This document shows, one piece after another, positions 631-14,886 of a DNA stretch of 64,000 nucleotides. This DNA is from an uncultured Gammaproteobacteria bacterium (lineage in GTDB: Bacteria > Pseudomonadota > Gammaproteobacteria > SZUA-229): NCBI GenBank assembly GCA_963721085.1, contig CAVRHW010000031.1, forward strand, positions 65,782-129,781, read 5' to 3'. Position 1 is the stretch's first letter. Each line of letters starts with the position of its first letter. Below the pieces are notes generated by a model that was given only the letters and a program-made list of their open reading frames with translations, was not told the DNA's origin and searched no databases. The translations under genes were made by a program, and so were the position numbers.

Positions 631-1071
631 ATGTCCGAGTATCGCCATATTGCCTGCCCAAAATGCGCCGCCAAAAACCGCGTGCCCGTTGCCAGACTGG
701 GCGCTGGCGGTAACTGCGGAAAATGCGGCACGCCTTTATTCAACCAGCACCCGATCGAGCTGACCACCGCCAATTTTGACCGCATGATCAATAACCATGA
801 CATTCCGGTGCTGGTGGATTTCTGGGCGCCCTGGTGCGGGCCGTGCAAAATGATGGCGCCCGCTTTTGAACAGGCCGCGCAAAAACTGGAACCTCAATTG
901 CGGCTGGCAAAGCTGAATACTGAAAATGAACAGGCGATTGCAGCGCGTTTTAATATTCGCAGCATTCCTACGCTGGCAATCTTTAAGAACGGGCGCATCA
1001 TCGCCCAGCAGGCGGGAGCGATGAATCTTGATGGTCTGTTATCCTGGGCACGCGCAAACGTTTCGCGCTAA
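631..1071 (+). CDS. trxC: thioredoxin 2 (TrxC type, with N-terminal zinc-finger extension)
   Basis: 146 aa. N-terminal CPKC...CGKC cysteine pairs are followed by a thioredoxin fold with the WCGPC active site. Confidence 0.9.
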   Translation: MSEYRHIACPKCAAKNRVPVARLGAGGNCGKCGTPLFNQHPIELTTANFDRMINNHDIPVLVDFWAPWCGPCKMMAPAFEQAAQKLEPQLRLAKLNTENEQAIAARFNIRSIPTLAIFKNGRIIAQQAGAMNLDGLLSWARANVSR

Positions 1072-2396
1072 CTCGCTGACAGAGTATCACGCATCGTGCG
1101 CAGCGCATCTCTGAAACGTTTCGGATCGAAGCGGTCTTCGTTGTCCAGCGTCCGGTAAAGCTCCTTGATTTCTTTTTTAATGCTGGCCTTGCGCGGATTG
1201 CTGAATGGCGCCATTTTGTCCCATGACACGGTCAGCGCACTGATCGCCATCGCAGCCTGTTCGGCAGCGACATAATTTCTGTACTCGCCCCAGACACCTT
1301 CATTCAGCAAACTCAGTGATATTTTCTGAATATCGTTTGCGCTGAACTTGTGTGGCATTATCTTCTCCTTGATCTCTTTTACCAGCGTCTGCATTTCACT
1401 CACTTTTTCATCCAGGGCCGCGTAACCCTCAGTCGAAGCAATATGCATTTCCTTGATCATGGTTTTAAGCTTCCATGCCAGCGCCGCATCGACTGGCACC
1501 GCAACGTTTCGCAGCATCAGCAAACTCGAATCATTAATGGTCACTACCCCCGGGCCAAGGCCGGTGCCGCGTCTTGGCGCCCAGGTTTTTTTCGACATGG
1601 AATGATGACAGCTCTGGCAATCGAACAGACTCAGTTCCGGGAACAGCTTGCCTGTTTGCATGCGATCACTTTTCAGCATTTTTAGCATTGCCTCGGCAGC
1701 GACCACCTGCCCAACCGCCCAGACCTTGACGTGGCTATACGCGATCTTGCGTTCACTATAATCCTTGTCCTGGACAAAATGTGGCGGCTGCAGTGCGCTG
1801 TAGGTATCCATCTCAAAGCTGATACGCGGATGGCCTGCGCCCATAATGTCATGACTGACAAACTGGTGCTTGTTGCCATAATGACATGACAGGCACACCC
1901 GGGTGCGCAGCACGATGTTGTCATTCGGATACAGGCCCTTCGCCACGTTATCTTTATGTGTGGCTTTTTTACTGGTGTGTGTTTTTAACCATTTCTCAGA
2001 ACCGCCGTGACATGCCTCACAACCGATACCGTCTTCTATGTGAAACTTTTTACCGCGAAATTTTTCGGCCACGTAGCTGGCATGGCAGACCAGGCAGGCA
2101 GGTTCTTTATAAGCCGGTTTCATCCCCAGTTTTGTCGTGATGTCAGTAAACTGTTTACCGAACATTTTTTTATACGACTGGCTGTGCGGATCTTTTCTTT
2201 CCCAGGTAATGTATTCGTTGTGCAAAATGTTCGAGTGCTGATAAGCCAGAACAGAACCATGGCAATTACTGCCCGCGCAGGTGGACACGCCTTCGTGCAC
2301 ATATCCGTCCTGCAGCGGCAATGGCGGCTCGCCTGCTGCGTGGCTTATTGTGCTGGTGAGCAGTAAAGCAAAACTGATGCATAGCTTATTTAGCAT
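1068..2396 (-). CDS. multihaem c-type cytochrome (4 CXXCH + 1 CX4CH) with helical C-terminal domain
   Basis: 442 aa. Signal peptide MLNKLCISFALLLTSTISHA. Haem motifs CAGSNCH, CLVCH, CEACH, CLSCH, CQSCH. The C-terminal ~170 aa are K/E-rich and helical, with no haem motif. The ATG overlaps the upstream stop by 11 nt. Confidence 0.85.
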   Translation of the reverse strand: MLNKLCISFALLLTSTISHAAGEPPLPLQDGYVHEGVSTCAGSNCHGSVLAYQHSNILHNEYITWERKDPHSQSYKKMFGKQFTDITTKLGMKPAYKEPACLVCHASYVAEKFRGKKFHIEDGIGCEACHGGSEKWLKTHTSKKATHKDNVAKGLYPNDNIVLRTRVCLSCHYGNKHQFVSHDIMGAGHPRISFEMDTYSALQPPHFVQDKDYSERKIAYSHVKVWAVGQVVAAEAMLKMLKSDRMQTGKLFPELSLFDCQSCHHSMSKKTWAPRRGTGLGPGVVTINDSSLLMLRNVAVPVDAALAWKLKTMIKEMHIASTEGYAALDEKVSEMQTLVKEIKEKIMPHKFSANDIQKISLSLLNEGVWGEYRNYVAAEQAAMAISALTVSWDKMAPFSNPRKASIKKEIKELYRTLDNEDRFDPKRFRDALRTMRDTLSAS

Positions 2397-5300
2397 TTGT
2401 CACCCTGTCGTTGACGGTCCAGACTTTTCCGTTTTTATCCAGATATAATTTCTGCATTTCCTCAAGAGTGAAAGGCCGGGAACCAAGACGCCCGAACACT
2501 GCGATCTGGTTGCCAGTTTCATCCACCGCCCGGTCACGATCAAGCCCCTTGGATAAGGACAGGGCCGGCGCGCCTGTCGGATAGGTCGCAATCAGTTGCG
2601 GGTGCGGTTGCGGACTAAAACCGTAGAAATCCGGCTGGCTGTCCGGCGATGTCATTTGCAGCACTTTCAGACCATTTTTACCGTCGGCAACATAACCGAT
2701 CAAACTGGCGTTTGTGGTCGCCACGATCACATCGCGCGCATCGTTTAATTTGCCGTCCGCGGTAAATAACTGCACCAGCTTCGGTTGCTCGGCTTTTTCA
2801 ACATCGATAATTGCAAGTCCCTGTTTACCAGCAGCGACATAGGCATAGGTCCGCGCCACATAAACACGGTGCGCATCTTTCAGTCTCACCAGCGCTCTGG
2901 TGATGCGCGGTTTGTCCGGATGGGTTACATCAACCACTTTCAGGCCATCTGCATCGGTGACGAACAGATATCTGAATTGCAGGCTGGTCGCGCGCGCTGT
3001 TTTGAGATTGATCACCGACGCCACTTTGGGTGCCAGTGGATTATCCAGATTGACTACCACGATACCGGCATCGGCTGCGATGTAAGCATAATAACCGCCG
3101 ATGGTGATATGTCGTGCGCCGTTCAGGATTCCGTTCGGGTTCCAGGTGAGCGCACGCTTGAGAAAATTATTACGCGCATCGCCATCGGCCATGGTATCTA
3201 CATTGGTTAAAATCAGCCCTTCCTTGCTATCGGTGATCAATGCGTAGTTATAGATGGGATGCATTGCCTGTTCTTCATCATCCACCCGCACGATCTTACG
3301 TGCATTGCGTACCGGATCGATCATCTGGTTTGTTGGCAACGCAATGCAGGTAGCATCACTGGTTTCTATATGTGTGTCGTGTCCAGCCGAGCTGTAAGGC
3401 GCGGTGATAATACGTTGCGCAACGCCCTTGTTGGCAATACTGGCAACATCGTATACCTGCACACCGTTCTTGCCCTGTGCTACGTATACATACTCGCCGC
3501 GTAACTGCAGACAGCGGGTCTCGCCGGAATCGTGCGTGTAGGCCTGCTTCAGTACCCGATTATTATCAAGGTGTTGTTGATAGAAATCCGGATACGCATA
3601 TTTCTGCAAATAGCTGCCGATCACTGCCTGCGGTTCATCCCATTCGGTCACGCGTACCGCTTCGATGTCCTGCTCGGTACCCACCCAGGCATTCAGGCCC
3701 ACAAAGTTGACAAAGTTGGTACCCAGCAATAACAACTGCGACATGATGGCATTGTTATCATCAGCATCCGAAATATGGCAATCGGTGCAGGTTTTTGTTT
3801 CTGTTAACCGTACAGTGTGTGGAAAATGCGGCGCGAAAGCCTGCGAACTAAAACCAGCGCTGGAAATGGGCGGCTGCTGCACATATATATGTTCACGATT
3901 GGCATTGGTCGATGACAGCACCAGCGCAGAGGATGATCGTACTGGCGCGATGCGACCGTCTTTTAACGGCCCGCGTTTGCCCAGCTGGAACATCTGGTCA
4001 CGCGCCACCTGTGGGTTATAAGTTGCGTAGTTCCGCGTCTCGCCACCTTCAAAATGCAGGCGCGGTGTTTTGTTGTTGGCTTCTATCGGCAGATGACAGC
4101 CGCCGCAACTGGTGGTCCATGAAGTATGACAGGAATAACATGTCATTTTGCTGTTGCTGTGCGCACGGTCCTTCGGTTTAACGCCCAGCCCCCAGGCCTG
4201 GGTGCTGGTGTTTGTGCTCATTAGTTTGGCGCGCGCGGATCGTGCATTGTAATGTTTACTTTTTGGATTCACCGCATCCTTGACCAGACTCATTTCCCAT
4301 TGCAGTCCTGGTGTCAGCATCGAGCGCTGGTACAGTTTTCCATTGATCCATTGAAAACGTTTTCTGCCATCGGGGTTGCGCAATAAAGTCAGATCGGTGC
4401 CACCGGGAGGGGCCGCCGGGCCCGAGGTGCGCAAACTGGGATACGCATCCGCAGTGCCATGGCAGTCCTTGCATGTGATCTCGACCGCAGCCGCGACTTC
4501 ACCGTGAATATTTCCGGTGCCATGACTGTCCTGTGCAAAATGGCAGTCAACACAATGCATGCCCTTGTCCATGTGAATCGACGCCATGTGCACGGCCTTG
4601 CGGAATTTATCCGGGTCCTTGTCATCCACGATCTTGCCATTCTTGTCGAGCAGATGGCCATGACGATCACGTTTGAACACCGCGCGGAAATTCCAGCCGT
4701 GGCCGTGATAATCCGCAAACTGGGTGTCTTTCAGTTCTGGATTCAGATCACGCACATTACGCAAAAAGGTTTCATCCGCCCATTTACCACGCGGCGCGGC
4801 GCCTTCCGGGTTGCGCTTGTAAACTTCACGCAGCTCGGCGGCGGTTGGATACTTCTGTTTTTTCGGCCACATGAACGGTGCATCGGATTCATAATCCCAC
4901 ATGGTGTAACCCATGAAGGTATTCATGAACATATTCGGCTGGTGCATGTGACAGGTCATGCACTGCGATGTCGGTATCGAACGCGTGAAGCTGTGCCTGA
5001 TCGGATGCCCTTCCTGGTGCTTCGGGATAGTAGGATCGATGGTCTCGGTAGTGCCGGTATGACCATCGATACTATACGGACCCGAATGTAACGGATCGCG
5101 ATCATTAGCGTATACGCTGTGGCAGCCTGCGCAACCCGATTGACGATAATCACCCGGCTGATCGTTGGTACCCATAAACCACATATGTGGATCATTCAAA
5201 CGTGTTTTGGTGAGATTGATCAGCGGTACCGCAATACGTCCCCCGGTGCCAGGGCCGCGATTGGACTGTTTAAAATCCGGGCGACCATCTTCTTCCAGTT

Positions 5301-6129
5301 TTTGCAATTCGCCTGATACGTTTGGAATACCGACTTCGGGAAATACATTGCCGAGGTTGCGGCCGCCATTTTCAAACACGCGGAAAATATCGGCAGGGGG
5401 CGTGACTTCCCAGGCAGGCAAAGGATAGAGCGCCGGCAGCACGCCTCGCGCCAGCATTTTTGCATCGGGCTCCTGCGGATTCAGGATCTCGGCAGGCGTG
5501 CCATCGCGCATATAGCTTTCACCCAGAATGTAATGCTTCAGCGGCAGGATGCCGTTGTTATAAGACGCGCCGCCCCAGAGCATCGCCGAGGTACTCATTA
5601 AACTACGTTTTGCCGCATCGATGATTTGCTGGTGACAGGCACCACAGGCTTCATCGGCGACACGGTAATCTGATGGATTAACAAAACGAACAAACTCGGG
5701 GCTTTCGCGATTCAACAAGGTGTAGCTGCTGCGCGGATTGGCACTCGACGGCAGATGCCAGGCATCAGGATAGCGCGGCAGCACATGCGCTTTTTCCATG
5801 GCCCGCAAATAAGCGACGTCTTTCTGTTTTGTGCCAGTCGGTTTTAATATCTTACTATCGCCGCCATGACAGTCGATACAGGCCAGGTTCACGTCTCCGC
5901 TTGGGTGCATCGTGGGCGAATCGGTTTTCGTGTGGCAACTCACACAACCCGTGTTTTTGGCGTCTACCTCTGCGGGCAACTGCGAAGCCGGTGCGTTCGG
6001 CGCAGTGACATAATGTCGCTCGACAGGATGTTCACCTTCCGATGCATAAACATTCATCACAGGCATTAGCAGGCCTATGCAGGCACAAAGCGCTAACCGT
6101 TTTAATACTATGTAAGTTCTATATTTCAT
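2386..6129 (-). CDS. decahaem c-type cytochrome fused to a C-terminal LVIVD-repeat beta-propeller
   Basis: 1247 aa with an N-terminal signal/anchor (LALCACIGLLMPVMNVYA). Ten CXXCH motifs: CVSCH, CIDCH, CGACH, CAGCH, CMTCH, CVDCH, CKDCH, CYSCH, CGGCH, CTDCH. The C-terminal ~430 aa carry repeated LVIVD-type blades (YVYVAQGKNGVQVYDV, YAYIAADAGIVVVNLDNP, YLFVTDADGLKVVDVTHP, YAYVAAGKQGLAIIDVEK, GYVADGKNGLKVLQM). Confidence 0.85.
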   Translation of the reverse strand: MKYRTYIVLKRLALCACIGLLMPVMNVYASEGEHPVERHYVTAPNAPASQLPAEVDAKNTGCVSCHTKTDSPTMHPSGDVNLACIDCHGGDSKILKPTGTKQKDVAYLRAMEKAHVLPRYPDAWHLPSSANPRSSYTLLNRESPEFVRFVNPSDYRVADEACGACHQQIIDAAKRSLMSTSAMLWGGASYNNGILPLKHYILGESYMRDGTPAEILNPQEPDAKMLARGVLPALYPLPAWEVTPPADIFRVFENGGRNLGNVFPEVGIPNVSGELQKLEEDGRPDFKQSNRGPGTGGRIAVPLINLTKTRLNDPHMWFMGTNDQPGDYRQSGCAGCHSVYANDRDPLHSGPYSIDGHTGTTETIDPTIPKHQEGHPIRHSFTRSIPTSQCMTCHMHQPNMFMNTFMGYTMWDYESDAPFMWPKKQKYPTAAELREVYKRNPEGAAPRGKWADETFLRNVRDLNPELKDTQFADYHGHGWNFRAVFKRDRHGHLLDKNGKIVDDKDPDKFRKAVHMASIHMDKGMHCVDCHFAQDSHGTGNIHGEVAAAVEITCKDCHGTADAYPSLRTSGPAAPPGGTDLTLLRNPDGRKRFQWINGKLYQRSMLTPGLQWEMSLVKDAVNPKSKHYNARSARAKLMSTNTSTQAWGLGVKPKDRAHSNSKMTCYSCHTSWTTSCGGCHLPIEANNKTPRLHFEGGETRNYATYNPQVARDQMFQLGKRGPLKDGRIAPVRSSSALVLSSTNANREHIYVQQPPISSAGFSSQAFAPHFPHTVRLTETKTCTDCHISDADDNNAIMSQLLLLGTNFVNFVGLNAWVGTEQDIEAVRVTEWDEPQAVIGSYLQKYAYPDFYQQHLDNNRVLKQAYTHDSGETRCLQLRGEYVYVAQGKNGVQVYDVASIANKGVAQRIITAPYSSAGHDTHIETSDATCIALPTNQMIDPVRNARKIVRVDDEEQAMHPIYNYALITDSKEGLILTNVDTMADGDARNNFLKRALTWNPNGILNGARHITIGGYYAYIAADAGIVVVNLDNPLAPKVASVINLKTARATSLQFRYLFVTDADGLKVVDVTHPDKPRITRALVRLKDAHRVYVARTYAYVAAGKQGLAIIDVEKAEQPKLVQLFTADGKLNDARDVIVATTNASLIGYVADGKNGLKVLQMTSPDSQPDFYGFSPQPHPQLIATYPTGAPALSLSKGLDRDRAVDETGNQIAVFGRLGSRPFTLEEMQKLYLDKNGKVWTVNDRVTNAK

Positions 6130-6172
6130 TTATAAAATAAATTCCAGTTCGCAGCTGAAAGCTTAGTTTTAC

Positions 6173-6202
6173 ATCTGCGTACATCCGCGTTTATCTGCGG
6201 AC
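6173..6202. repeat. three phased 10-bp repeats (ATCTGCGTAC ATCCGCGTTT ATCTGCGGAC); single arm related to the palindromic element family at 30.9 kb and 62.7 kb
   Basis: Read directly in the 78-nt gap between the barrel gene and the decahaem/propeller gene. 22 of 30 positions are identical to 62751-62780 (ATTTGCGTGCATTTGCGTTCATTAGCGGAC). Confidence 0.6.
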
Positions 6203-6207
6203 AAGTC

Positions 6208-7950
6208 TTAATACCTGAACACAAAATTACCCAGCACGCTGTAATCCAGCGTATCGCCAAACATCTGTTTGTAGCCCTTGCCCGGTACCAGCACCGCGGC
6301 TGACAAACGCAGCACAATATTCTGGCTGTACAGGGGCCGATAAATACTGGCCAGCGAAACATCCCAGCCGATATCGTTGCTGATATTACCCTGATTCCGC
6401 GCTGCTTCGAGCACTGCGGTGTTATCAAACCAGAGATGATTAATATTGGTGGTGAGGCGCAATAATGGAGTCACGTCAAAATCCATTCCATAACCGATTA
6501 AACGTATGCCCGGGTTGGTAAAATTGGACTGCCCCTCTTCTTTTGAGGAACGCATCGAATTCAGCAGGCCGTTACGTCCCGACAGCGCAACACCACCGCC
6601 ACCAATATTGGCCACCGGCTGCCGAATCCAGAAACTGGTGTCCGCACCTGCAATCAGGGGATTTTCCAGAATCGAATCGAAACCGGTGGAGCGGTCATCG
6701 TAAGGATTTTTATCGCCACTACCGTATACCAGCGACAGGCGCGCACGAATCCAGTCGTAATCGCGGGCCAGTTCGGCCGCCGCAAAAAATGCGCTGATAC
6801 GTGATGGCTGAATACTGAAGGTACTGTGGTTTTCATTGCCGCTGACGTAATAAGTAGAAACACTAACATCAGTTCTACCAAAATGCCCGTCACCGTTATA
6901 CCCGAGATAAGTCACCTGGTATTCGCGCAACTGCTCGGTTCCGAGCGATGCCGGCCTGACCAGAAATCCGTTGTTGTCGTAATAATTATCTTTGTTCTCG
7001 CGATTGATGTTGTGTATCAACGACAGCTCAGAAGTGAAGCCAGGTGTCGGAAAATCCTGTCGATAAATATTCGCAACGAATACATCATCATCGCGCAGCG
7101 GTTTAGTCGTATCATTCAGTCCGCTGTTGGTGTCTTTTTCAATGCGGCGGAACCAGGCGATGTTGTACTGATAGATATTATTATCGCGGGTTCCAAAAAG
7201 GCGAATCCCGACCGGGTTGTCTATAAACAGGAAACCGCGAAAATCCGCGGTGAATGGTTGAACGCCTACACGCACACTGTCAAAGTCATAGCGCTCCGAA
7301 ACATTGCGCAAATGCTTGTCGATATACAGGTCCTGAATACCCACATGAGAATCCTGGCGCGTCTCACCCTGGTTGGGATCAATCGACAGAACGCGTAATT
7401 CCTCCGTGCGCACATAGTTTGAATTTACTACGGCAGTAAATCGGTATTCATAATCCGGTGGACGGAAAATGGTATCGCCCTTGTAATAATCTGCGCTGAT
7501 TATGAAGTTCTGGTTCAGCACCAGCTGGTCACCGCTGCCGATCACATCAATACTGCCGGGATTATTCGTGGTGGCAGGCCCCACCGGTGTCGGTAAACGC
7601 CGCGGCTCGATGACACTGTCAGAGATCAGTGACAGATCTAAAAACCAGTCATCATGAACTGGCTTATCGCCTTTCAGTGTGTTCTGGTGATAGGGGTCGT
7701 ACCAGTGTTCTTTGGTGACACCCAGGGTGTCGAGCAAACGCCAGCGATCGGGTACCGGTATCGACTCGCGTTTCAGATCAGGGCCCGGCGGTTCGATCGC
7801 ACCCGGATTATATACTGGTGCTGAACCCGAGGAACGTTCCGTGCTCGCACCCGGACGTTGCCGTTGCCAGTCATCATCTGCATGGCTTGCAGTCGCCGAT
7901 AATAAAATGGCGATGCTGATAGTTAATACGGATGCTCGCTTATTTACCAT
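6208..7950 (-). CDS. outer-membrane beta-barrel protein, function unknown
   Basis: This is the frame of ORF 6208..8091. My preferred start, ATG 7950, gives signal peptide MVNKRASVLTISIAILLSATASHA-DDDW. The sequence is long, rich in alternating-hydrophobic strands and in Y/F/W/G/N/D, and ends ...NFVFRY (aromatic C-terminus typical of OM barrels). The start overlaps the upstream stop by 11 nt. Confidence 0.7.
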   Translation of the reverse strand: MVNKRASVLTISIAILLSATASHADDDWQRQRPGASTERSSGSAPVYNPGAIEPPGPDLKRESIPVPDRWRLLDTLGVTKEHWYDPYHQNTLKGDKPVHDDWFLDLSLISDSVIEPRRLPTPVGPATTNNPGSIDVIGSGDQLVLNQNFIISADYYKGDTIFRPPDYEYRFTAVVNSNYVRTEELRVLSIDPNQGETRQDSHVGIQDLYIDKHLRNVSERYDFDSVRVGVQPFTADFRGFLFIDNPVGIRLFGTRDNNIYQYNIAWFRRIEKDTNSGLNDTTKPLRDDDVFVANIYRQDFPTPGFTSELSLIHNINRENKDNYYDNNGFLVRPASLGTEQLREYQVTYLGYNGDGHFGRTDVSVSTYYVSGNENHSTFSIQPSRISAFFAAAELARDYDWIRARLSLVYGSGDKNPYDDRSTGFDSILENPLIAGADTSFWIRQPVANIGGGGVALSGRNGLLNSMRSSKEEGQSNFTNPGIRLIGYGMDFDVTPLLRLTTNINHLWFDNTAVLEAARNQGNISNDIGWDVSLASIYRPLYSQNIVLRLSAAVLVPGKGYKQMFGDTLDYSVLGNFVFRY

Positions 7951-9868
7951 GGCAAACATCTGTTTCGGTTGAATCCAGGAACGGTGACTGCGGGCACTGC
8001 ACAAACCGCAGGTGTATACCCATTGGCGCAAGATTATCGGCGCGCATCGCTGCCGGTGCATTATTGATGGTGCCCAGTATTGCACTGGCATTGTTCAGGC
8101 CAAGAAATGAAACCATGTCATCCTGATCGACGCCATCGCCGGAAACACCAATGCCGCCGACCAGAATATTGCCACGATAAATCGGCACGCTACCTGGAAA
8201 CACCTGCATGCCATTGGCAAGTCGGCTCAGCGTGGTACAGTTTTGCGGCGCATCCGGGCCGCCACCTTTGACATAAACCACGTGCTGAATAACGCGGTTC
8301 ATCACCAGGTCAAGCTGCATACCGTCGGAAAACGGGCTCCATTCGCTGATCGGTTTGCTAAACGGGCCGTTGACCGAACCAACCGTGCCGTCCGGAAAAA
8401 ACGGGCGCGACAGATTGCCGCCGGAACGGTCGGCAAAGGCATATGCACCATCGGCCAGTGCGGTCGGTGCGCCGAGAAAATTTCGCACCGCAGACACATA
8501 ATCAGCAATGCTGATCTGGATGCCGCTCGGGCTCGCATCCGGATTTCTATAAATCGTGTTCGGTACCGCGCTCAGTTCAGCCGCGCCGTGGGTGCCGGAA
8601 AAAAAAGTTGCGGTGCGCGCTTTCTGCAGAGACACGTCGGTACCGAACACCGGGCCATCACGCGTGCGCGCAATACCCAGTATTTTGCCATTGGTATCAA
8701 CCACCGACACGGTGACGCGCGCCTGGCTGCCCAGCGGCCGGCGAATTTGTGAACGCGCGCGATTTGCGACTGCCAGCGCACTGCTGATCAGCTGTTTCAC
8801 TTCGCTGGCAGACAATGCATTCGCGCCATCACTGCCCGCAGTCGGCGGGAAGCGATTCACATTGCTGTTATCGACCAGCACAAAAGCATCCAGCCCGGGA
8901 TAATCAACCGGGTCTGCGCGTATCCCCGAATCGGGCTGACCAAAGGCCTTGCCATCGATCACTGCGCCTGCGGTATAACCGGTCACTGCCTGCAGACTGC
9001 CTGCACTGCCATCGATGCTGGCAAAACTGGGCGCATTGCCCGGCGTTGTCGCCAGGTCAGAAAAATCGACGTCAGAGAACCGCGCCACCTTGCCGTCCAG
9101 TGTAATCTTTTCTCTGCGATCAACCGGCGCGGCAAAACCATAACTGCCGGCGACTGCAATCAGTTCATCGATATTGCGATCGCGATCGTTGGTATTCAGA
9201 TCCAGTCCATAGACACCATCCGCAATCACACCAATACCACCGACCAGCGCGCCGTTTTTATATAAAGGCAGACCACCGGGGTCGGCGGACAAACCCAGCG
9301 GCGTGCGATGCGGTCCGGCATCTGCACCTGCGCTAAAGCGCGTATTCAGATCCGAACAGGGTAAATTACTGAACTGCACGCCGAACAAAGGGCCGCCCGG
9401 CTGGCCGGTTTCACCTGGATTAAAATGTTCCTGCACGATCTGGCTGGCGGTTCGCGTACTAAAGGCATTGCCTTCGGATGACAGATAGGCACCTGTCATC
9501 GCTTTTGAAATCGCGGCCAGGGTATCCGGGATCACATTGATGCCTTCCAGACCACCGCTGACATTGCGTCCCGAATCAATGGTGATATCGGTCGATGCCG
9601 AATTCATTCTGAATACCGCGAGCACGTTGCCCACGCGATCGACAACCGCAATGGTCCCCGCAACGCCCTGCGCCTGCGCTTCTGTCACCGCCTGAGCAAT
9701 AATGGTTTCGGTTTCGGCAACACTGAGAAAACTGCTGGCATTGGTGCAGCTACCGTTGCACTCTACTGCTCCCGCGCCGGTACCTGCTGTCGAATCACCA
9801 TTGCCACTGCTGCAGGAGAGCAGAACACTCAGCACACCAAAACAACCGGCTTTGAGAATGCTATTCAT
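7940..9868 (-). CDS. lipoprotein with two GlcG/HbpS-like (DUF336, haem-binding/degrading family) domains
   Basis: Frame of ORF 7940..9883. ATG at 9868 gives MNSILKAGCFGVLSVLLSC-SS (lipobox LLSC). There are two copies of the DUF336 signature: PLYKNGALVGGIGVIADG, and PIYRGNILVGGIGVSGDGVDQDDMVS preceded by VVDRVGNVLAVFRM / VVDTNGKILGIARTRDG. The start overlaps the upstream stop by 8 nt. Confidence 0.7.
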   Translation of the reverse strand: MNSILKAGCFGVLSVLLSCSSGNGDSTAGTGAGAVECNGSCTNASSFLSVAETETIIAQAVTEAQAQGVAGTIAVVDRVGNVLAVFRMNSASTDITIDSGRNVSGGLEGINVIPDTLAAISKAMTGAYLSSEGNAFSTRTASQIVQEHFNPGETGQPGGPLFGVQFSNLPCSDLNTRFSAGADAGPHRTPLGLSADPGGLPLYKNGALVGGIGVIADGVYGLDLNTNDRDRNIDELIAVAGSYGFAAPVDRREKITLDGKVARFSDVDFSDLATTPGNAPSFASIDGSAGSLQAVTGYTAGAVIDGKAFGQPDSGIRADPVDYPGLDAFVLVDNSNVNRFPPTAGSDGANALSASEVKQLISSALAVANRARSQIRRPLGSQARVTVSVVDTNGKILGIARTRDGPVFGTDVSLQKARTATFFSGTHGAAELSAVPNTIYRNPDASPSGIQISIADYVSAVRNFLGAPTALADGAYAFADRSGGNLSRPFFPDGTVGSVNGPFSKPISEWSPFSDGMQLDLVMNRVIQHVVYVKGGGPDAPQNCTTLSRLANGMQVFPGSVPIYRGNILVGGIGVSGDGVDQDDMVSFLGLNNASAILGTINNAPAAMRADNLAPMGIHLRFVQCPQSPFLDSTETDVCHGK

Positions 9869-11561
9869 TGTTCGTACGCACATCGCTGTTGCCCATCAGC
9901 AAAGTGTCGGGCTCATGAAATTTATGACAGGTAATACAGGTCGATGCCAGCTTGTCGCTACTATGCGCACCGCCGTGGCAGTCGCGACAGACCTTGATTC
10001 CTGGCAACAACACATCTTCACTGCTCTTTGACTCTTTCGCCTTATGGCAGTCTTCGCATTTTGAATTGCGATGCGCGCGATGATCAAATTCACCCTTGCT
10101 GAACCAGCGCTGCGAAATATGCACCTTTGGAATTCGCCAGCCATATTCTGCAGTCGGGTCACGCATCACCTTGTGGCACAGATTGCAGCTACGAAACTCG
10201 ATCACTTCTTCTTTAACATCGGCGGCCTTGTCTTTTGCCCAGGCCATCGCGGTTTTCATTTCTTTCGGTGTTAATGTTTTTCCCGGAATGCGTCTTTTCC
10301 TGACGATGTCGGGCGCCGGGAAATCGGTGTCCTGATAATTTCCCCTCAGCGCCATGAATGCGTAAAACTCATTTAACATCGAGGTCATGGTGCCCAGGTC
10401 GGCGTGAGGCAATTGTCGATCGGGAGCGTTCTGATCAAAGTCCAGGCGATGACATTCCTGACAGTGCACTTCCATCTGGATGGGCAGCATATAATTGCCA
10501 CTGGCATCGGTTTGATGACAGCTGCTGCAATTGAGCACCCGGTTTCCTGTCGGACTATCCACACCATTTACATCGAGATGCACCTTGTGTGAAAAAATCA
10601 GCCCGGTTTCCTGTTTAAGCCCGGGTGTATCCAGACTGACACGGTGCCACACCGGTTTACCGATACCCGGGTCGATATCAGTTAGCAGACGCGGCCGGAA
10701 CTCGACATGATGTTTTCCAAAATCTTCAATATCAGCCAGTTTTGTTTCTGTTAGCTTGCTCAAATGCTCATGACAGTTGCTGCATAAAGCCTGATCCTGT
10801 CTTACCAGAAATGCTGTGCCCTTGTGTTCCTGATGACAGTCGGTACAGCTGGCATGTGTTAATTGCCTGATATTGAATATCTCGGGGTCCGCATGTACCG
10901 TGACATCTTTATGGCATGCGAGACAGGCCGCGTTTTTTACTTTTTGAAATGGTTTTACATGGCAGGCATTGCAGTTACTGGCGAAATGTTTGTGCTGCGA
11001 ACTGATTTCACCACTCAGCCAGAGACCGTCATCAGGTGCAACCGGTATTTTGTGCAACAGCTTGCCTGTGTCCTGATTAAAAAATCCGGCCATAGGGACA
11101 ATAAGGCATAATAGCAATATCAGCACGAAGCCAGTCCAGGCAGCACGACGCCGACTTAACCAGGTGTCTTCCAGCTTTCTTGCCGTCTGGTGCTCACTCT
11201 GAACATCAACAATGTCGTCGTATACCTGCTCGACGGTAATGTCGATATCAATGGGTGCAGCGCCAGGTTCGACCGTAATCCTGTAAGGACCCACCTGTAT
11301 TTCGCCGCGCCCTTTGAACGAACCGCTTTGCGAAAAACGGCCGTTAACATGAAGCCCGGCCTTGCTCAGCGAAGTAACACCAACCTGGCCATTTCCCGCA
11401 ACGGTGAGCTGCGCGTGCTGGTAAGCCACACCCAGATCGGAAAGAAAAATGTCCTGGTCGGTCGCACGGCCGATACTGATGACCGCTTTATTGAGCACCT
11501 GTTCATTCTGAACAATTGTGCCTTTGCGTTTATGAACAATATGACGAATACGTGTTTGCAT
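9861..11561 (-). CDS. FHA-domain, single-pass membrane-anchored decahaem c-type cytochrome
   Basis: 566 aa. The N-terminal ~100 aa are FHA-like (ISIGRATDQDIFLSDLGVAYQHAQL...LHVNGR). A positive-inside TM follows (SRRRAAWTGFVLILLLCLIVPMAGFF). Then ten CXXCH motifs: CNACH, CLACH, CTDCH, CSNCH, CSSCH, CQECH, CNLCH, CEDCH, CRDCH, CITCH. Confidence 0.85.
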   Translation of the reverse strand: MQTRIRHIVHKRKGTIVQNEQVLNKAVISIGRATDQDIFLSDLGVAYQHAQLTVAGNGQVGVTSLSKAGLHVNGRFSQSGSFKGRGEIQVGPYRITVEPGAAPIDIDITVEQVYDDIVDVQSEHQTARKLEDTWLSRRRAAWTGFVLILLLCLIVPMAGFFNQDTGKLLHKIPVAPDDGLWLSGEISSQHKHFASNCNACHVKPFQKVKNAACLACHKDVTVHADPEIFNIRQLTHASCTDCHQEHKGTAFLVRQDQALCSNCHEHLSKLTETKLADIEDFGKHHVEFRPRLLTDIDPGIGKPVWHRVSLDTPGLKQETGLIFSHKVHLDVNGVDSPTGNRVLNCSSCHQTDASGNYMLPIQMEVHCQECHRLDFDQNAPDRQLPHADLGTMTSMLNEFYAFMALRGNYQDTDFPAPDIVRKRRIPGKTLTPKEMKTAMAWAKDKAADVKEEVIEFRSCNLCHKVMRDPTAEYGWRIPKVHISQRWFSKGEFDHRAHRNSKCEDCHKAKESKSSEDVLLPGIKVCRDCHGGAHSSDKLASTCITCHKFHEPDTLLMGNSDVRTNNE

Positions 11562-11575
11562 GCTCTATTCGCCAG

Positions 11576-12472
11576 CTACCAGTAGAAAAATACGGAAATA
11601 ATATGCGCAATCAATGCCGCAAGCAGCGCAAATGACAGGGGCACATGAATGTACAGCCAGAGATCAAGATAGGCTTTATACTGCATATCACGACGTAGCT
11701 GCTCAACCAGGCGCTCTTTCTGGCCAATCAATAAATCAGTGAGCTGCAACATCGTCGCGCCGGTGTCGTCACTTTCTTTTGCAATACGGCTCGCCATAAA
11801 CGCCATGGTGCTATCAAGATCGCGTTTCTCCATTTTTTCCTGCTGATATTTTGCTTCCTGCACCAGCCCCTGCAGATCATCCGATTTTTTGCTGCCAAAC
11901 ACGATGTCAAAAACACTGCCGCCGAGACGCGTGCGCTGAATACTTTTCAACACGCGTTCGTGGGTTTCGGGATTAATTTCGCTGGCCAGCACAAGTGCCT
12001 GTCGGTCGATGTCCTGTATCTGGCGAATTAAAGAGTCGGGTGAAGATTCGCCACGGTTGTCGGTCATCAATGTCGGAAAATGCAGGTAACAATAAACGCC
12101 GTAAATGCCACTGAAAATAACCAGCATCATCAGCACGTAGGCCAGGGTGTGAACATTCCAGCCAAACTGGAACCCGGTGTGCAAGGTCGCGAGCACGATC
12201 AGCGCCAGCCCGAGATACACATGCGCCGACAACCAGCCCGCAGCGGTGCCCATGCTGGAGCGATAGCGACGTTTGCGTATACCGAACCACATCAACCAGA
12301 CAATCAATAACGCCGATATCGTGCCCAGGGTGTAACCCAGCCAGGTGCCGCCATTCGGCGGCATGGTGGGATTATCCAGCGCATAGGCCAGAATAGCGCC
12401 TGTGCACAGCGCCACGCTCCACCAGAGATAGCGCGAGCCACGGTAACTGAGGATTGTCTGGTGCATCGCCAT
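11576..12472 (-). CDS. integral membrane protein with two His-x13-His helices (candidate dihaem b-type transmembrane electron carrier)
   Basis: Frame of ORF 11576..12589. ATG at 12472 lies 2 nt after the upstream stop. I read about five hydrophobic helices. One is SAHVYLGLALIVLATLHTGF and another is YIHVPLSFALLAALIAHIISVFFYW, each with His at i and i+14. A ~120-aa polar loop lies between helices 4 and 5. Confidence 0.7.
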   Translation of the reverse strand: MAMHQTILSYRGSRYLWWSVALCTGAILAYALDNPTMPPNGGTWLGYTLGTISALLIVWLMWFGIRKRRYRSSMGTAAGWLSAHVYLGLALIVLATLHTGFQFGWNVHTLAYVLMMLVIFSGIYGVYCYLHFPTLMTDNRGESSPDSLIRQIQDIDRQALVLASEINPETHERVLKSIQRTRLGGSVFDIVFGSKKSDDLQGLVQEAKYQQEKMEKRDLDSTMAFMASRIAKESDDTGATMLQLTDLLIGQKERLVEQLRRDMQYKAYLDLWLYIHVPLSFALLAALIAHIISVFFYW

Positions 12473-12474
12473 GT

Positions 12475-14886
12475 TTATGAGCGCCCTGCGTAGTTCGCCA
12501 GCTGATCCGGCTTGATGCGTATCGCGGCACCGGTCGGGCAGGCGCGCACACAGGCCGCACCACCGCTGAGGTCTTTGCACATATCGCACTTCACTGCTTT
12601 TTTCACCGCCTCGCTATCTTTTTTGCCATAGCCTTTGGGCGCCTGGCCGGGGCCGGGGCCAATACCGAACAACAACCATGGGATCAGGCCCGGTTTTTTC
12701 GGTGGCTTTGTCGCCATCTGGATCACACCGTAGGGACAGTTGCGCTGACAGTTACCGCATCCGATACAGTTATCGGCAACATACACTTCGCCGTCGGGCG
12801 CACGCTTGATCGCATCGGGAGGACAATCCTTCATGCAGTGCGGATGCTCGCAATGACGACATGAAGTCGGCACATGAATCGCCGCATAGGTGGGGCCGGC
12901 TTCACGATCCAGCCGCGAGGTTCCATCGTGCGTTTCCGCGCAGGCTTTTTCACAATTGTCGCAACGAATGCACAGGGACTCATCGATCAATAATACATCG
13001 GTGGCTTCGCCAACCCCCTGGCTGACCAGGAAGGAAATAATGCTGTTGCCACCCTGCTGCTGCATGCGCAGATTATTTGAAACACGCTGCTTGTATTCTT
13101 TTTCGATGTTGCGCCTGAGCGCCTCATCCTGTTCGAGCAGATAACGAAACTCATCCGCGCCCAGTTCGATGGTTTCGGTCGCCGTGGCTGCGCGCACGGT
13201 TGCCGTACGGCGGCTTTTACCCATGATGCCCATTTCACCAACATAGTTGCCCGCGGGCAGATACGACATCACCACTTCGTGTTCGCCAAGACGGCGCGAA
13301 ATTGTTACCGATCCTCGCCGGATCACATGAAAGCTTTCTGCTTCATCGCCTTCATTAAACAATACTTCACCAGCGCGATATGACTGCAGTTTTGCCTTTT
13401 TGGCAATTGTTGCCAGGCTCTGAATCGGTGTGGTATTGGCAAATCGCGTCTGCAGGGTGCGCACAATAAACGCTTCGTCAATCGTGCGCTTCACCGACTC
13501 GACAGAGCTGATCAATTTATTCATCGAGCGCCGAGGCGTTTCGATCAACACACATTTTTTGCCTGCGCGTATGGTTGCCGAGCGACGACGACCAGACAAT
13601 AAACTCATTTCACCGAAAAACTGGCCCGGGGTTAACGCAATTGTTTTGTCAGGATCGTTCTCATCGATTTCAATCAGCACTTCACCGCTGATAATGCAGA
13701 AAAATGTATTGGTGTAATCATTTTTACGAAAAATATAATCGCCCGGGGAAGCAACATATATTTCACTGTCGAGAAAAAACTCACGTAACTGCAGAACCGT
13801 GAGGCCAGAAAGCAACGGCACTATCTTTCTGATTGAGCGTAATGCCTGGTTTACTGCGGGCTTGCCGGGTATTTTTTCAAACCGCGCCTTAAGCAAAGGC
13901 TCGTCTGCGGGCTCGACCGGATTGCCCTCAATGTATTCGACAACTTCGTATCCCTGGTTCATACATTGCTTGATCAGGGGGTAGCCGCCCAGCGCACCAA
14001 TAATATAAATGCCGGGCACATTGCTTTCGTATTGATCGGACAACTCGGGCACTGCACCGATATCTGCATTCGGAAAACGAATGCCGCAGGATTCAATGAA
14101 CTTGCGCGGCGGAATCGCGCCAAGACGTGCGATGATGCGATCGAAAGGCACTTCCGCTTCGCCTTCGGGTGTTTCCAGCACCAGTACGGCTTTTTGCGCG
14201 GCACCTTCGGGGCTCTGTTCGATGCGTACCGAATTGGCCTGATAAAAACATTCGATCACGCCTTTTTCGATCTTGTCGAGTATCGCGGCATTGTTCGCTT
14301 CCTTGGCGCGGGTGAACTCGGGCTGGCGATTCACTATATATACCGTATTGTGGCCACATAGCGCGAGCGCGTTTTCGATACCGGCATCGCCGCCGCCAAT
14401 GACAACAATATGTTCATCTTCGTATTCGTCAGGATCGTCCAGGGTGTATTGCACCAGTGGCGCTGCTTCCCCGGGAATACACAGCATACGTGGATTTCCC
14501 TGCACCCCCACGGCCAGAACGATATGCTCGGCGCGGATGGTTTCACCCTGTTTCAGGCTGATTTCGAATCCACCCTTGCTGCCACTGATCGCCGAAACTT
14601 CAGCATTGCATTTGAGATTGACCCGATGCGTGTCGATTCCGTGTTGCCAGGTATCCAGGACTTCTTCTCGTTTGGCGGCGGTGAACTTGATCGGACTGCG
14701 CAGCGGCAGCACACGCGGTTCGTCCATCACGTGCTTGCCTTTCTGGTAGTGGAATATGGTGTTACAGATATGAGGTTCAGCTTCGAGCAATATATGGTTA
14801 ATGCCCAGTTCTGCGGCACGTGAAGCCGCGCTCAGGCCACCGGGGCCCGAACCGATGATGGCGATTCGATAGTTGTTACCACCCAT
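12475..14886 (-). CDS. fusion protein: FAD/NAD(P)-binding pyridine-nucleotide-disulfide-oxidoreductase-like domain + two cyclic-nucleotide-binding domains + four-cluster [4Fe-4S] ferredoxin domain
   Basis: 803 aa.
- N-terminus: IAIIGSGPGGLSAA (dinucleotide fold) and a second GGGDAGIENA.
- Two cNMP signatures: FGEMSLLSGRRRSATIRA and VGEMGIMGKSRRTATVRA.
- C-terminal cluster motifs: CIRCDNCEKAC, CRHCEHPHCMKDCP, CIGCGNCQRNCP, CDMCKD...CVRACP.
- No signal peptide or TM. Confidence 0.85.
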   Translation of the reverse strand: MGGNNYRIAIIGSGPGGLSAASRAAELGINHILLEAEPHICNTIFHYQKGKHVMDEPRVLPLRSPIKFTAAKREEVLDTWQHGIDTHRVNLKCNAEVSAISGSKGGFEISLKQGETIRAEHIVLAVGVQGNPRMLCIPGEAAPLVQYTLDDPDEYEDEHIVVIGGGDAGIENALALCGHNTVYIVNRQPEFTRAKEANNAAILDKIEKGVIECFYQANSVRIEQSPEGAAQKAVLVLETPEGEAEVPFDRIIARLGAIPPRKFIESCGIRFPNADIGAVPELSDQYESNVPGIYIIGALGGYPLIKQCMNQGYEVVEYIEGNPVEPADEPLLKARFEKIPGKPAVNQALRSIRKIVPLLSGLTVLQLREFFLDSEIYVASPGDYIFRKNDYTNTFFCIISGEVLIEIDENDPDKTIALTPGQFFGEMSLLSGRRRSATIRAGKKCVLIETPRRSMNKLISSVESVKRTIDEAFIVRTLQTRFANTTPIQSLATIAKKAKLQSYRAGEVLFNEGDEAESFHVIRRGSVTISRRLGEHEVVMSYLPAGNYVGEMGIMGKSRRTATVRAATATETIELGADEFRYLLEQDEALRRNIEKEYKQRVSNNLRMQQQGGNSIISFLVSQGVGEATDVLLIDESLCIRCDNCEKACAETHDGTSRLDREAGPTYAAIHVPTSCRHCEHPHCMKDCPPDAIKRAPDGEVYVADNCIGCGNCQRNCPYGVIQMATKPPKKPGLIPWLLFGIGPGPGQAPKGYGKKDSEAVKKAVKCDMCKDLSGGAACVRACPTGAAIRIKPDQLANYAGRS

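Follow-up and report, generated by a model that had tools for sequence, protein, structure and literature searches.

The window, by which we mean the whole 64-kb stretch of DNA analysed, contains seven open reading frames on the minus strand (g1–g7) at positions 1068–14886, and our coordinates agree with those of the original prediction. Their products have predicted locations that step from the cytoplasm to the outer membrane, as had been proposed, and the features are as follows.

14887–15037, no strand assigned (divergent): intergenic region 5′ of g1, 151 nt, the presumed promoter region
12475–14886, minus strand: g1, 803 residues, cytoplasmic, with flavin/NAD(P), tandem cNMP and ferredoxin domains
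11576–12472, minus strand: g2, 298 residues, five-helix inner-membrane protein with a charged cytoplasmic insert of ~145 residues
9861–11561, minus strand: g3, 566 residues, with a cytoplasmic FHA domain, one transmembrane helix and a periplasmic decahaem c domain
7940–9868, minus strand: g4, 642 residues, lipoprotein with three GlcG/HbpS-like (DUF336) units
6208–7950, minus strand: g5, 580 residues, predicted 18-strand outer-membrane β-barrel with a signal peptide
2386–6129, minus strand: g6, 1247 residues, with a type-I signal peptide, a decahaem c domain and a C-terminal LVIVD β-propeller
1068–2396, minus strand: g7, 442 residues, periplasmic pentahaem protein (four CxxCH and one CX4CH) with a C-terminal domain of ~180 residues

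When the originally chosen start codons are used, the coordinates give junctions of +2, +14, −8, −11, +78 and −11 nt, and the seven-gene layout is as claimed. Alternative starts are possible for g4 (at 9883) and g5 (at 7959), and a public annotation begins g6 at Met22, with which its signal peptide would be lost. Terminator-like sites inside the operon are not in excess (20, versus 16.6 ± 3.6 in shuffled sequences). The sequence AAGGA lies 10 nt 5′ of the g1 ATG; on direct reading of the 151 nt upstream, no convincing sigma-70 match was found and no regulator sites were identified. It had also been remarked that this is the sole large block in the window without frameshifts; this is true but uninformative, since the essential gene ileS is interrupted in another part of the window, so that the frameshifts are better ascribed to assembly indels than to biology.

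The g1 protein, for which no signal peptide is predicted, consists of a flavin/NAD(P)-binding region (residues 1–330), tandem cNMP-binding domains (residues ~350–610) and a C-terminal ferredoxin region (residues 630–790). These are matched in Pfam by Pyr_redox_2/3 (Pyr_redox_3, 5e-33), cNMP_binding (5e-39, two stretches) and the Fer4_7/Fer4_11 dicluster domains, and by sequence in the PDB by YpdA/TrxR-like flavoproteins, the tandem cNMP-binding domains of PKA regulatory subunits and HycB four-cluster ferredoxins. Sixteen cysteines in four cluster motifs are 96–98% conserved among 50 orthologues (cofactor-site conservation was computed over 50–80 orthologues per gene), enough for four [4Fe–4S] clusters, and the FGE...R phosphate-binding cassette of the cNMP domain is conserved in domain A. 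In g2, the His-x13-His helices of the original prediction were found as two pairs, H84/H98 and H276/H290, inside predicted helices; together with H108, these residues are 98% conserved among 58 orthologues and are also invariant in A4. Under the positive-inside rule, each pair would have one histidine at either leaflet (H84 and H276 cytoplasmic, H98 and H290 periplasmic), and with the pairs in register for two b haems g2 is predicted to be a dihaem b-type transmembrane electron carrier. Pfam gave sub-threshold matches only (Ni_hydr_CYTB, 22.7 bits against a cut-off of 30.1, and DUF4405), a profile search of the PDB gave none, and one homologue in UniRef is labelled 'Ferric reductase like transmembrane component'.

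The third protein, g3, is predicted to have an N-in topology with a single helix (residues 143–161, with RRR on its N-terminal side), which separates an FHA domain (residues ~20–100; 33 bits against a Pfam cut-off of 20.7, 6e-8) from a decahaem region (residues 190–549) matching cytochrome c3/c7 families. Its ten CxxCH motifs and ten further conserved histidines, enough for ten bis-His haems, are kept in 55 of 57 orthologues. The phosphothreonine-binding residues of the FHA domain are partly conserved (G31 95%, R32 72%, H49 67%), a weakness that counts against a gating role for this domain. Both the NAD(P)H-type entry module and the two kinds of signalling domain noted earlier are real, and the inner-membrane half of the system (g1–g3) is, as far as sequence can indicate, well supported.

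The earlier count of 25 c-haem motifs was confirmed, although one of them is CX4CH (CAGSNCH, in g7); besides the ten in g3, the 24 CxxCH motifs comprise ten in g6 and four in g7. All five haem sites of g7 are 100% conserved, the CX4CH site among 54 orthologues, alongside five to six further conserved histidines; the protein matches Cytochrome_C554 (32 bits against a cut-off of 20.8), and its signal peptide ends ...SHA/AG. The g6 protein joins a decahaem domain of ~860 residues (3550–6129) to the LVIVD propeller (2389–3549; Pfam 6e-15), a fusion kept in six of the seven divergent relatives tested. Fourteen non-motif histidines are invariant among its close orthologues, and 12 of them are kept in relatives at 40–50% identity. 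ExtM is matched weakly (75.7 bits against a cut-off of 800), neither sequence nor profile comparison with the PDB gave a match, and structure prediction reached a pLDDT of 44. The catalytic-haem signatures CxxCK and CX15CH are both absent from g6; with histidines enough for all-bis-His ligation, an enzymatic terminal step is thus unproven.

As originally described, g4 is a lipoprotein with GlcG/HbpS-like domains: its lipobox is LLSC, and Pfam finds HbpS-like in three stretches (1e-20). Its PDB sequence matches are EfgA, a PduO C-terminal domain and a putative extracellular haem-binding protein. Serine at position +2 of the window protein suggests sorting to the outer membrane. A strict lipobox, a Gly-rich tether and a conserved CxGxC occur together in 43 of 63 orthologues; four cysteines and no histidines are conserved among the orthologues. 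For g5, neither Pfam (even at E = 10) nor a sequence search of the PDB gave a match, but the AlphaFold2 model (pLDDT 71, pTM 0.70) has 18 long strands, so that the protein is predicted to be an all-β outer-membrane barrel, as claimed, rather than soluble. Foldseek places AlgE first in the PDB (E 7e-17, TM 0.64–0.68), followed by the OccD/OprD/OccK 18-strand channels. The protein, whose relatives are 57–78% identical, has a conserved disordered N-terminal segment (residues 25–100), a long conserved internal loop (residues ~420–480), 11 invariant Arg and 14 invariant Asp residues, and a C-terminus of ...FVFRY.

The operon is conserved in hundreds of species, mostly proteobacterial. There are more than 7,900 database relatives of g6 at 62–81% identity, all named 'hypothetical' or 'LVIVD repeat', with matches in at least 600 species genomes. 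Complete flanks were available for 37 loci, which come from Acidobacteriota as well as Gamma-, Beta- and Alphaproteobacteria; all seven genes are linked in 27 of these despite rearranged order (1234567 in 11, 2345671 in nine, inverted sub-blocks in others). Genes g2–g3 and g5–g6 are adjacent in every locus and g4, where present, is directly upstream of g5; g4 is missing from about five related loci, and g7 is relocated or absent in some. A chance juxtaposition is not borne out, as synteny of the set extends to dozens of distant genomes, and the linkage kept across rearranged loci upholds a single conserved functional unit. Nevertheless, [1][2-3] and [4-5-6][7] behave as blocks that are rearranged independently of one another, on opposite strands in some loci, and a few loci hold g4–g6 without g1–g3 within the fetched flanks. 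These observations would suit two separable systems, in which g1–g3 form a regulated periplasmic reductant supply and g4–g7 are fed mainly by the quinol or cytochrome c pool. We consider this decidedly unlikely: g1–g3 and g4–g7 lie <10 kb apart in the great majority of loci from several phyla despite rearrangement, and junctions in the window are 2 to 14 nt or overlapping, as selection for co-expression predicts.

The original prediction likened the crossing of the outer membrane to a porin–cytochrome conduit, and this was not supported. MtrB has 26 strands and sheathes a decahaem cytochrome, whereas g5, with 18, would by analogy be too small to do so; its modelled fold resembles the 18-strand AlgE/OprD channels, which suggests the passage of solutes more than the housing of a cytochrome. 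Furthermore, the signal peptide is type-I in g6 and its orthologues alike, and g6 lacks a valid lipobox. In an MtrCAB-type conduit, g6 would be exposed at the cell surface, with an electron route running through g5 or beside it, and the acceptors that it reduces would be insoluble or lie outside the cell (e.g. Fe(III), Mn(IV), humics or partner cells); under O2 scarcity, surplus NAD(P)H would be disposed of in this way. The operon does encode large multihaem proteins alongside a barrel and a lipoprotein, 25 haems exceed the need of a periplasmic enzyme and the hosts are largely sediment and soil organisms. LVIVD repeats have been described as surface-protein repeats, β-propeller genes stand beside outer-membrane cytochrome clusters in Tenderiales and D. 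ferrophilus, and some distant g6 relatives have lipoboxes, one carrying an MtrC/MtrF domain. However, MtrB is absent among the best 50 structural matches to g5, Pfam gives no MtrB_PioB match to it, and no conserved secretion genes were found near the operon. Surface cytochromes diverge rapidly, unlike g6 with its 62–69% identity across phyla. We regard such a conduit as unlikely.

Our preferred reading, which we hold tentatively, is that g1–g7 form one regulated, quinone-pool-independent chain carrying electrons outward, with g5 as a channel. The chain appears to start from NAD(P)H in the cytoplasm, to cross the inner membrane and, by way of 25 c-type haems, to end at a channel complex in the outer membrane. 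In g1, the flavin domain would oxidize NAD(P)H and the four [4Fe–4S] clusters would carry electrons onward; two b haems in the paired H-x13-H helices of g2 would provide the inner-membrane crossing to the ten bis-His haems of membrane-anchored g3, followed by pentahaem g7 and the decahaem–propeller g6. The last would act with g4 and g5 on the periplasmic side of the outer membrane, the barrel being, given its AlgE/OprD-like size, most likely a channel for the entry of a specific small acceptor, which may be anionic, or for the exit of a product, and unlikely a cytochrome sheath. The far stronger conservation of g6, g4 and g5 (~45–70% identity) than of the wire-like g3 and g7 (~27–49%) hints that the complex or its substrate is specific. 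This NAD(P)H drain, which would otherwise waste energy, may be gated by the cNMP domains (g1) and the FHA domain (g3); in favour of such regulation are the intact cNMP phosphate-binding cassette and the Ser/Thr kinase, PP2C and FHA genes that adjoin the operon in about 15 loci.

Signalling domains built into redox proteins could instead mark a redox sensor that relays the redox state of the periplasmic haems to FHA, cNMP and kinase partners in the cytoplasm. The adjoining kinase, PP2C and FHA genes would suit this as well, and the GlcG/HbpS family includes sensors such as EfgA. Yet 25 c haems, two b haems, four FeS clusters and an outer-membrane channel go far beyond the need of a sensor, a transcriptional output domain is absent, and neither the window nor most loci contain kinase genes, which makes this the least probable of the readings considered.

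Compared with known systems, none of g1–g7 reaches the cut-off of a curated family model, in keeping with the earlier view that the parts are not those of Mtr/Pio/Mto, Nrf, Hao, Otr or Dsr, and no characterized homologues were found in database, PDB and UniRef comparisons. The suggestion that the system is undescribed stands in part: no prior description of the lipoprotein–barrel–decahaem/propeller trio (g4–g6) was found in the literature, but modules related to g1–g3 appear in preprints, an independent notice that speaks for the preferred reading. In Ferrigenium, a g1–g3-like trio with an FHA–nonahaem cytochrome, its function called unknown, adjoins nirK and an SHP gene without g4–g7 (doi 10.64898/2026.01.22.701106), an arrangement that would also suit two separable systems. 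Its authors propose that electrons flow inward, from Fe(II) oxidases by way of this cytochrome, and quinol has also been suggested there as an electron source; g3 might likewise draw on quinol, in the manner of NapC/CymA-type cytochromes with a single helix. Inward flow here, with g6/g7 oxidizing a periplasmic or extracellular donor and a cytoplasmic NAD(P)+ or ferredoxin-like acceptor being reduced, is conceivable in that all cofactors are reversible in principle. From bioenergetics, however, we infer that the membrane potential would assist outward flow and oppose inward flow through the dihaem b protein, for which a donor well below −320 mV would be needed; most hosts, moreover, are aerobic heterotrophs or methanotrophs, and we consider this reading very improbable. 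The ptdABCDEFG operon, its function likewise called unknown (doi 10.1101/2023.11.21.568154), has a similar NAD(P)H/cNMP/FeS, transmembrane and decahaem module but pairs it with other cytochromes and a porin, which again would fit two separable systems; these partners, together with the Ferrigenium trio, indicate that the two halves may be loosely coupled. Set beside these relatives, g1–g7 is a genuine, widespread and uncharacterized redox system.

The seven open reading frames of the operon (g1–g7) all run on the minus strand between positions 1068 and 14886 of the window. With the start codons of the original prediction, its junctions of +2, +14, −8, −11, +78 and −11 nt were reproduced, and its 25 haem c sites were recovered as ten CxxCH motifs in g3, ten in g6 and four in g7, which also carries a CX4CH motif (CAGSNCH). 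A Pfam search of g1–g7 upheld the domain calls, and the cut-off of an NCBIfam model was attained by none of the seven proteins. The genes with their Pfam matches, and other features of the window considered here, are as follows.

12475–14886, minus strand: g1, flavin/cNMP/FeS protein; Pyr_redox_2/3, two cNMP_binding, 4Fe-4S dicluster
within 1068–14886, minus strand: g2, five-helix membrane protein; only a sub-threshold match of cytochrome b561 type
within 1068–14886, minus strand: g3, FHA-decahaem cytochrome; FHA, cytochrome c3/c7
within 1068–14886, minus strand: g4, lipoprotein; HbpS-like, three stretches
within 1068–14886, minus strand: g5, outer-membrane barrel; no match even at E = 10
within 1068–14886, minus strand: g6, 1247-residue decahaem-propeller protein; LVIVD
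1068–2396, minus strand: g7, pentahaem cytochrome; Cytochrome_C554
631–1071, plus strand: thioredoxin-2-type gene (Zn-ribbon and thioredoxin), converging on g7 with a 4-nt overlap at the stop codons
22343–22936, minus strand: AI-2E transporter gene, truncated
23744–24842, minus strand: RmuC gene, split
42328–45158, plus strand: ileS, split into two or more ORFs (class-I synthetase profile positions 2–185 and 207–413)

The neighbours of the operon are the convergent thioredoxin-2-type gene, the adjacency of which is not kept at other loci, and, on the other side, a nucleoside-transporter gene in divergent orientation. Inside the operon, terminator-like sites show no enrichment, and no convincing promoter or regulator site was found for it. 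Its freedom from frameshifts, remarked on earlier, was considered as a biological signal, a reading that we reject: since the essential ileS is itself split, the frameshifts elsewhere in the window resemble assembly error and are best ascribed to indels of assembly or sequencing, and the intactness of the operon is not a signal of biology.

The seven genes are widely conserved as a unit. More than 7,900 database relatives of g6 (62–81% identity) were found, every one named 'hypothetical' or 'LVIVD repeat', and the picture for g5 is alike (57–78% identity). Exact-sequence look-ups of g6 and g2 matched no record; the nearest relatives come from uncultured Gammaproteobacteria. A scan with g6 at one genome per species gave at least 600 matches; among the matches listed, the loci belong to Gamma-, Beta- and Alphaproteobacteria, Acidobacteriota and one Bacteroidia bin. 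When the seven proteins were searched by tblastn and blastp against 81 loci, the same genes surrounded g6 at nearly every sufficiently long contig, and all seven were present at 27 of the 37 loci with full flanks, which rules out the chance juxtaposition that had been named as a possible refutation. Among these 37 the gene order is 1234567 in 11 and 2345671 in nine, other variants having g1–g3 inverted or g7 moved. The g2–g3 and g5–g6 pairs are never separated; g4 lies directly upstream of g5 where present and is absent at about five loci (Steroidobacteraceae and Methylococcales). Clustering of all ORFs of the 81 loci gave mostly antisense artefacts and no eighth universal gene. Two separable systems sharing one neighbourhood would account for the independent rearrangement of blocks and for a trio of genes found alone or with other partners, but the linkage persists across phyla, and we judge this reading to be quite unlikely. 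Persistence of the linkage through rearrangement is instead strong evidence for a shared function. Identity across loci is about 45–70% for g6, g4 and g5 but only about 27–49% for g3 and g7; this suggests that g4–g5–g6 may form a specific complex or recognize a specific substrate, with g3 and g7 as probable wires.

Some loci carry further genes. Directly downstream of g7, at one related locus (L001, 14988–21023) and at about 15 others, of Halieaceae/Cellvibrionales type, are genes for a PP2C phosphatase, a double-FHA protein and Ser/Thr kinases; the window has no such genes. From this proximity, g3 may take part in a phospho-signalling circuit through its FHA domain. Alphaproteobacterial loci have an additional gene between g3 and g4, encoding 311 residues with faint CusB/biotin-lipoyl-like matches at one locus (L082, 12642–13577) and 146 residues at another (L083, 12621–13061). 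At the latter locus a PAS hybrid histidine kinase and a sigma-54 activator are encoded immediately upstream (2022–7089).

The inner-membrane half comprises g1, g2 and g3. The g1 protein has no export signal and begins with a Rossmann GxGxxG motif; in the PDB it matches flavoproteins of the YpdA/TrxR type, PKA regulatory subunits in their tandem cNMP domains, and four-cluster ferredoxins of the HycB type. The 16 cysteines that form its four cluster motifs are 96–98% conserved, and the phosphate-binding cassette FGE...R is conserved in the first cNMP domain. Five helices are predicted in g2, together with a charged insert of about 145 residues on the cytoplasmic side. The two His-x13-His helices noticed earlier are present, and their residues (H84/H98 and H276/H290) are 98% conserved among 58 orthologues and show no variation across an alignment of 12 sequences. 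The positive-inside rule would have both helices run from cytoplasm to periplasm, which would place H84 and H276 at one leaflet and H98 and H290 at the other. Two such pairs on two transmembrane helices, with about 13 residues between partners, are the geometry of two-haem transmembrane cytochromes b, and haem binding by g2 is predicted on this basis. Among curated families g2 attained no cut-off (Ni_hydr_CYTB, 22.7 bits against 30.1; DUF4405, 14.9 against 26.7), and a profile search of the PDB gave no match; some of its homologues have a precomputed b561-type Pfam match, and another label, 'Ferric reductase like transmembrane component', is attached to one homologue. The g3 protein consists of a cytoplasmic FHA domain, a single helix with RRR ahead of it, and a periplasmic domain in which ten CxxCH motifs and ten further histidines are kept in essentially all orthologues, the pattern of a predicted bis-His electron wire. 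The phosphothreonine-binding residues of its FHA domain show patchy conservation. By analogy with NapC/CymA-type cytochromes, which share its single-helix anchor, g3 might exchange electrons with quinol; it gave no Pfam match to Cytochrom_NNT, the NapC/NirT/CymA tetrahaem family, at E ≤ 0.01.

In the outer half, g4 is a lipoprotein with a strict lipobox followed by a Gly-rich tether in 43 of 63 orthologues. It is built of GlcG/HbpS-like units (Pfam PF03928, DUF336; 74.4 bits against a cut-off of 25, in three stretches), its PDB relatives include EfgA and PduO-C, and it has no conserved histidine. Its orthologues carry CxGxC just past the tether (CNGSC at 9730–9770 of the window, residues ~37–45) and four further conserved cysteines. 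An AlphaFold2 model of g5, of moderate confidence (pLDDT 71, pTM 0.70), has 18 long strands in a barrel. Its best Foldseek match is AlgE (E = 7e-17, TM ~0.65), followed by the OprD/Occ family (E from 7e-17 to 1e-8 overall), and no MtrB structure is among the best 50 matches. A long internal loop and the N-terminal segment are among the most conserved regions of g5, and 11 Arg and 14 Asp residues are invariant. The likeness to the 18-strand barrels of AlgE and OprD/Occ is one of fold: sequence identity is only 10–12%, Pfam gives no match, and g5 has a conserved N-terminal extension of about 75 residues and an invariant loop of about 60 residues. Exopolysaccharide secretion through an AlgE/AlgK-like pair was rejected, the conserved neighbours including no polysaccharide-synthesis gene.

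The g6 protein has a type-I signal peptide in the orthologous group of the window protein, with ten CxxCH motifs and 12–14 conserved extra histidines. The propeller is kept in six of seven divergent relatives tested (~35–48% identity), and none of the seven revealed a further informative domain. A search of a representative library with the haem domain returned only its own family and fragments; the AlphaFold2 model of this domain is of low confidence (pLDDT 44.5). Sequence or profile searches of the PDB with g6, g5, g7 and g2 gave nothing significant. The similarity of g6 to the model of ExtM, a cytochrome of a selenite/tellurite reduction operon according to NCBIfam, is weak (75.7 bits against a cut-off of 800). 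A NosZ-like copper propeller was rejected because the propeller lacks conserved histidine. Two motifs, CMxCHMHQPN (residues ~390–399, window 4690–4710) and YHGHGWNFR (473–482, window 4940–4960), are invariant among close orthologues; H396 is retained in distant relatives, H475 and H477 are not. They could form a non-haem metal or substrate site. Relatives of g6 vary in architecture: one (P0255, 1648 residues) combines 28 CxxCH motifs, an MtrC/MtrF II–IV domain and LVIVD, another (P0326) joins the C-terminus of g5 to g6 in an apparent fusion or miscall, and several at 40–50% identity (the P0249/P0257/P0259/P0260 group) have lipoboxes, which the window protein does not. The periplasmic pentahaem cytochrome g7 has all five haem sites invariant.

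These features bear on whether the operon encodes a true Mtr-like conduit to extracellular acceptors. The operon shares with MtrCAB, PioAB and MtoAB the grouping of genes for decahaem cytochromes, an outer-membrane barrel and a lipoprotein, and in it electrons would likewise move toward the envelope. However, g5 is modelled with 18 strands, whereas the MtrB/PioB family is defined by a barrel of about 26 strands that sheathes a decahaem cytochrome, and it matches neither MtrB_PioB nor any other Pfam family at E ≤ 10; g6 is not a lipoprotein, and entry would be from NAD(P)H rather than from quinol through CymA. The DmsE/MtrA and OmcA/MtrC models scored only 17–23 bits against cut-offs of 192–209, roughly tenfold short (TIGR03508: g3 20.9 and g7 16.6 bits, cut-off 192.2; TIGR03507: g3 22.9 bits, cut-off 209, and no match for g6). 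Owing to the barrel size of g5 and the type-I signal peptide of g6, we consider an Mtr-like conduit unlikely. The original porin-cytochrome reading is partly supported: it stands in so far as the operon is a conserved redox unit with parts outside the curated Mtr/Pio/Mto models, but finds no support in the barrel size or in the signal peptide of g6. Because g5 is channel-sized, the Mtr-like label that a barrel-plus-multihaem cluster invites would be wrong here, a warning against that shortcut. A Cyc2-type fused porin-cytochrome is excluded, as g5 contains no CxxCH motif. The catalytic haem motifs CxxCK and CX15CH (NrfA, HAO, Otr, MccA and ONR types) are absent from the operon proteins; the only similarity to such enzymes is that of g6 to octahaem nitrite reductase at E ~0.8, and the NrfB-type model scored 15.6 bits against a cut-off of 184. 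In Tenderiales and Desulfovibrio ferrophilus, too, clusters for outer-membrane cytochromes are accompanied by β-propeller genes.

We propose a quinone-independent chain in which electrons would pass from NAD(P)H to FAD, four [4Fe-4S] clusters, two haems b and then haems c, in the order of ten in g3, five in g7 and ten in g6, ending on the periplasmic side of the outer membrane. There, g5 would admit a small acceptor or release a product; gating of the chain would fall to the cNMP and FHA domains. As a whole, this chain seems to us to have somewhat less than an even chance of being correct. Outward flow is favoured since the membrane potential would aid electrons moving from cytoplasm to periplasm and oppose the reverse; inward electron uptake, being bioenergetically unfavourable, is most improbable. 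The proposed outward pathway would conserve no energy, which fits heavy regulation. Its regulatory domains might also belong to a sensing device, which we regard as hardly credible because the cofactors are too many for such a job. A fuller and more doubtful version extends NADPH-oxidase/ferric-reductase logic across the Gram-negative envelope: a quinone-independent export gated by cyclic nucleotide and phosphothreonine would run from FAD through four FeS clusters and two haems b to 25 haems c, and would end in a novel outer-membrane catalytic complex (AlgE-like channel, tandem DUF336 lipoprotein and decahaem-propeller) that, in hundreds of aerobic species from soil, sediment and sea, reduces a specific substrate.

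The operon is a genuine, very widespread and uncharacterized redox system, of the loosely defined porin-cytochrome-like kind of gene cluster, with an unusually clear inner-membrane module and an outer module outside the Mtr paradigm. The suggestion that it was undescribed holds for g4–g5–g6, of which the searchable literature gave no description (combinations of LVIVD, decahaem, HbpS and multihaem), but not for the inner module, since a related ptd operon and a Ferrigenium trio have already been noted; a paper on Woeseiaceae goes no further than mtrCAB calls of the FeGenie type. Among the hosts are Halieaceae, Woeseiaceae, Steroidobacteraceae, Limnobacter, methanotrophs, soil Acidobacteriota and marine Alphaproteobacteria. 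Should the chain operate as proposed, many common aerobic or microaerobic bacteria would spend cytoplasmic NAD(P)H at the outer membrane by a large, tightly conserved pathway that is absent from current models of respiration, detoxification and extracellular electron transfer; the five-helix dihaem protein, the FHA-anchored decahaem and the decahaem-propeller fusion would then be new biochemical entries. As several hosts are in culture, the question is directly testable; cultured carriers include Parahaliea maris HSLHS9, Limnobacter alexandrii LZ-4, Sphingoaurantiacus capsulatus KCTC 42644, Hyphococcus sp. ECK-19, Fontimonas sp., Oceanibacterium hippocampi, Kineobactrum salinum and Pseudohalioglobus lutimaris.

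Two described systems come closest to the inner module. The ptdABCDEFG genes of the marine Alphaproteobacteria UBA11136 and others (IMG Ga0066848_100031354 neighbourhood), described by bioinformatics with a function called 'completely unknown', encode an FAD/NAD(P) oxidoreductase, a cNMP-binding 4Fe-4S protein, a ferric-reductase-like membrane protein, decahaem, pentahaem and tetrahaem cytochromes and a porin (10.1101/2023.11.21.568154). Compared by description, the match is architectural: the PtdE-F-G order mirrors g1–g2–g3, the oxidoreductase and the cNMP-binding 4Fe-4S protein are both present, and a membrane protein precedes a decahaem cytochrome, although g2 has no Ferric_reduct Pfam match despite its 'ferric reductase like' homologue. 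There are also clear differences. A single protein, g1, unites the flavoprotein and cNMP/FeS parts and has four clusters, where ptd is described with two; the g3 decahaem is membrane-anchored and bears an FHA domain; the tetrahaem PtdD has no counterpart in the operon; and ptd lacks both the 1247-residue decahaem-LVIVD protein and the HbpS-like lipoprotein. PtdA is an NrfA-COG pentahaem with a β-sandwich, likened to the solved pentahaem c552 of T. tepidum (10.1101/2023.11.21.568154); g7 matched no PDB entry at E ≤ 0.1, that structure included. In Ferrigenium straubiae, a trio of unknown function groups an FHA-nonahaem cytochrome c with a five-helix protein and with a [4Fe-4S] protein of the cytosol; its authors describe it as novel, could assign the membrane protein to no family, called the union of FHA and multihaem cytochrome unprecedented and favoured inward flow to quinone, the His pairs not being remarked upon (10.64898/2026.01.22.701106). 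By description, its three-gene architecture and predicted topology are those of g1–g2–g3, but it has nine haems rather than the ten of g3 and adjoins nirK and an SHP gene, without g4–g7. The best 120 g2 homologues, where checked, all came from the present seven-gene family and revealed no ptd-type or Ferrigenium-type context.

Better-known systems share the principle of the inner half. In NOX/FRE ferric-reductase-domain proteins and Fre-MsrQ, electrons pass from NAD(P)H through flavin and two b haems on paired His-x13-His helices to an acceptor across the membrane, which is the working principle proposed here. Unlike these, the operon proteins have no Ferric_reduct Pfam match, g2 has five helices and a large cytoplasmic insert, a four-cluster FeS wire would lie between flavin and haem, and the acceptor would be a 25-haem c chain. 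In the Tmc, Hmc and Qrc complexes of sulfate reducers, a multihaem cytochrome in the periplasm is joined by a cytochrome b in the membrane and an FeS protein in the cytoplasm, the same three kinds of component as proposed for the operon. Nevertheless, the NCBIfam models of TmcA, HmcA and QrcA scored 16–26 bits against cut-offs of 114–400, and the operon has flavin/NAD(P) and regulatory domains but no HdrD/CCG domain. The inner half resembles NOX/FRE, Fre-MsrQ and Tmc/Hmc and is a member of none of them.
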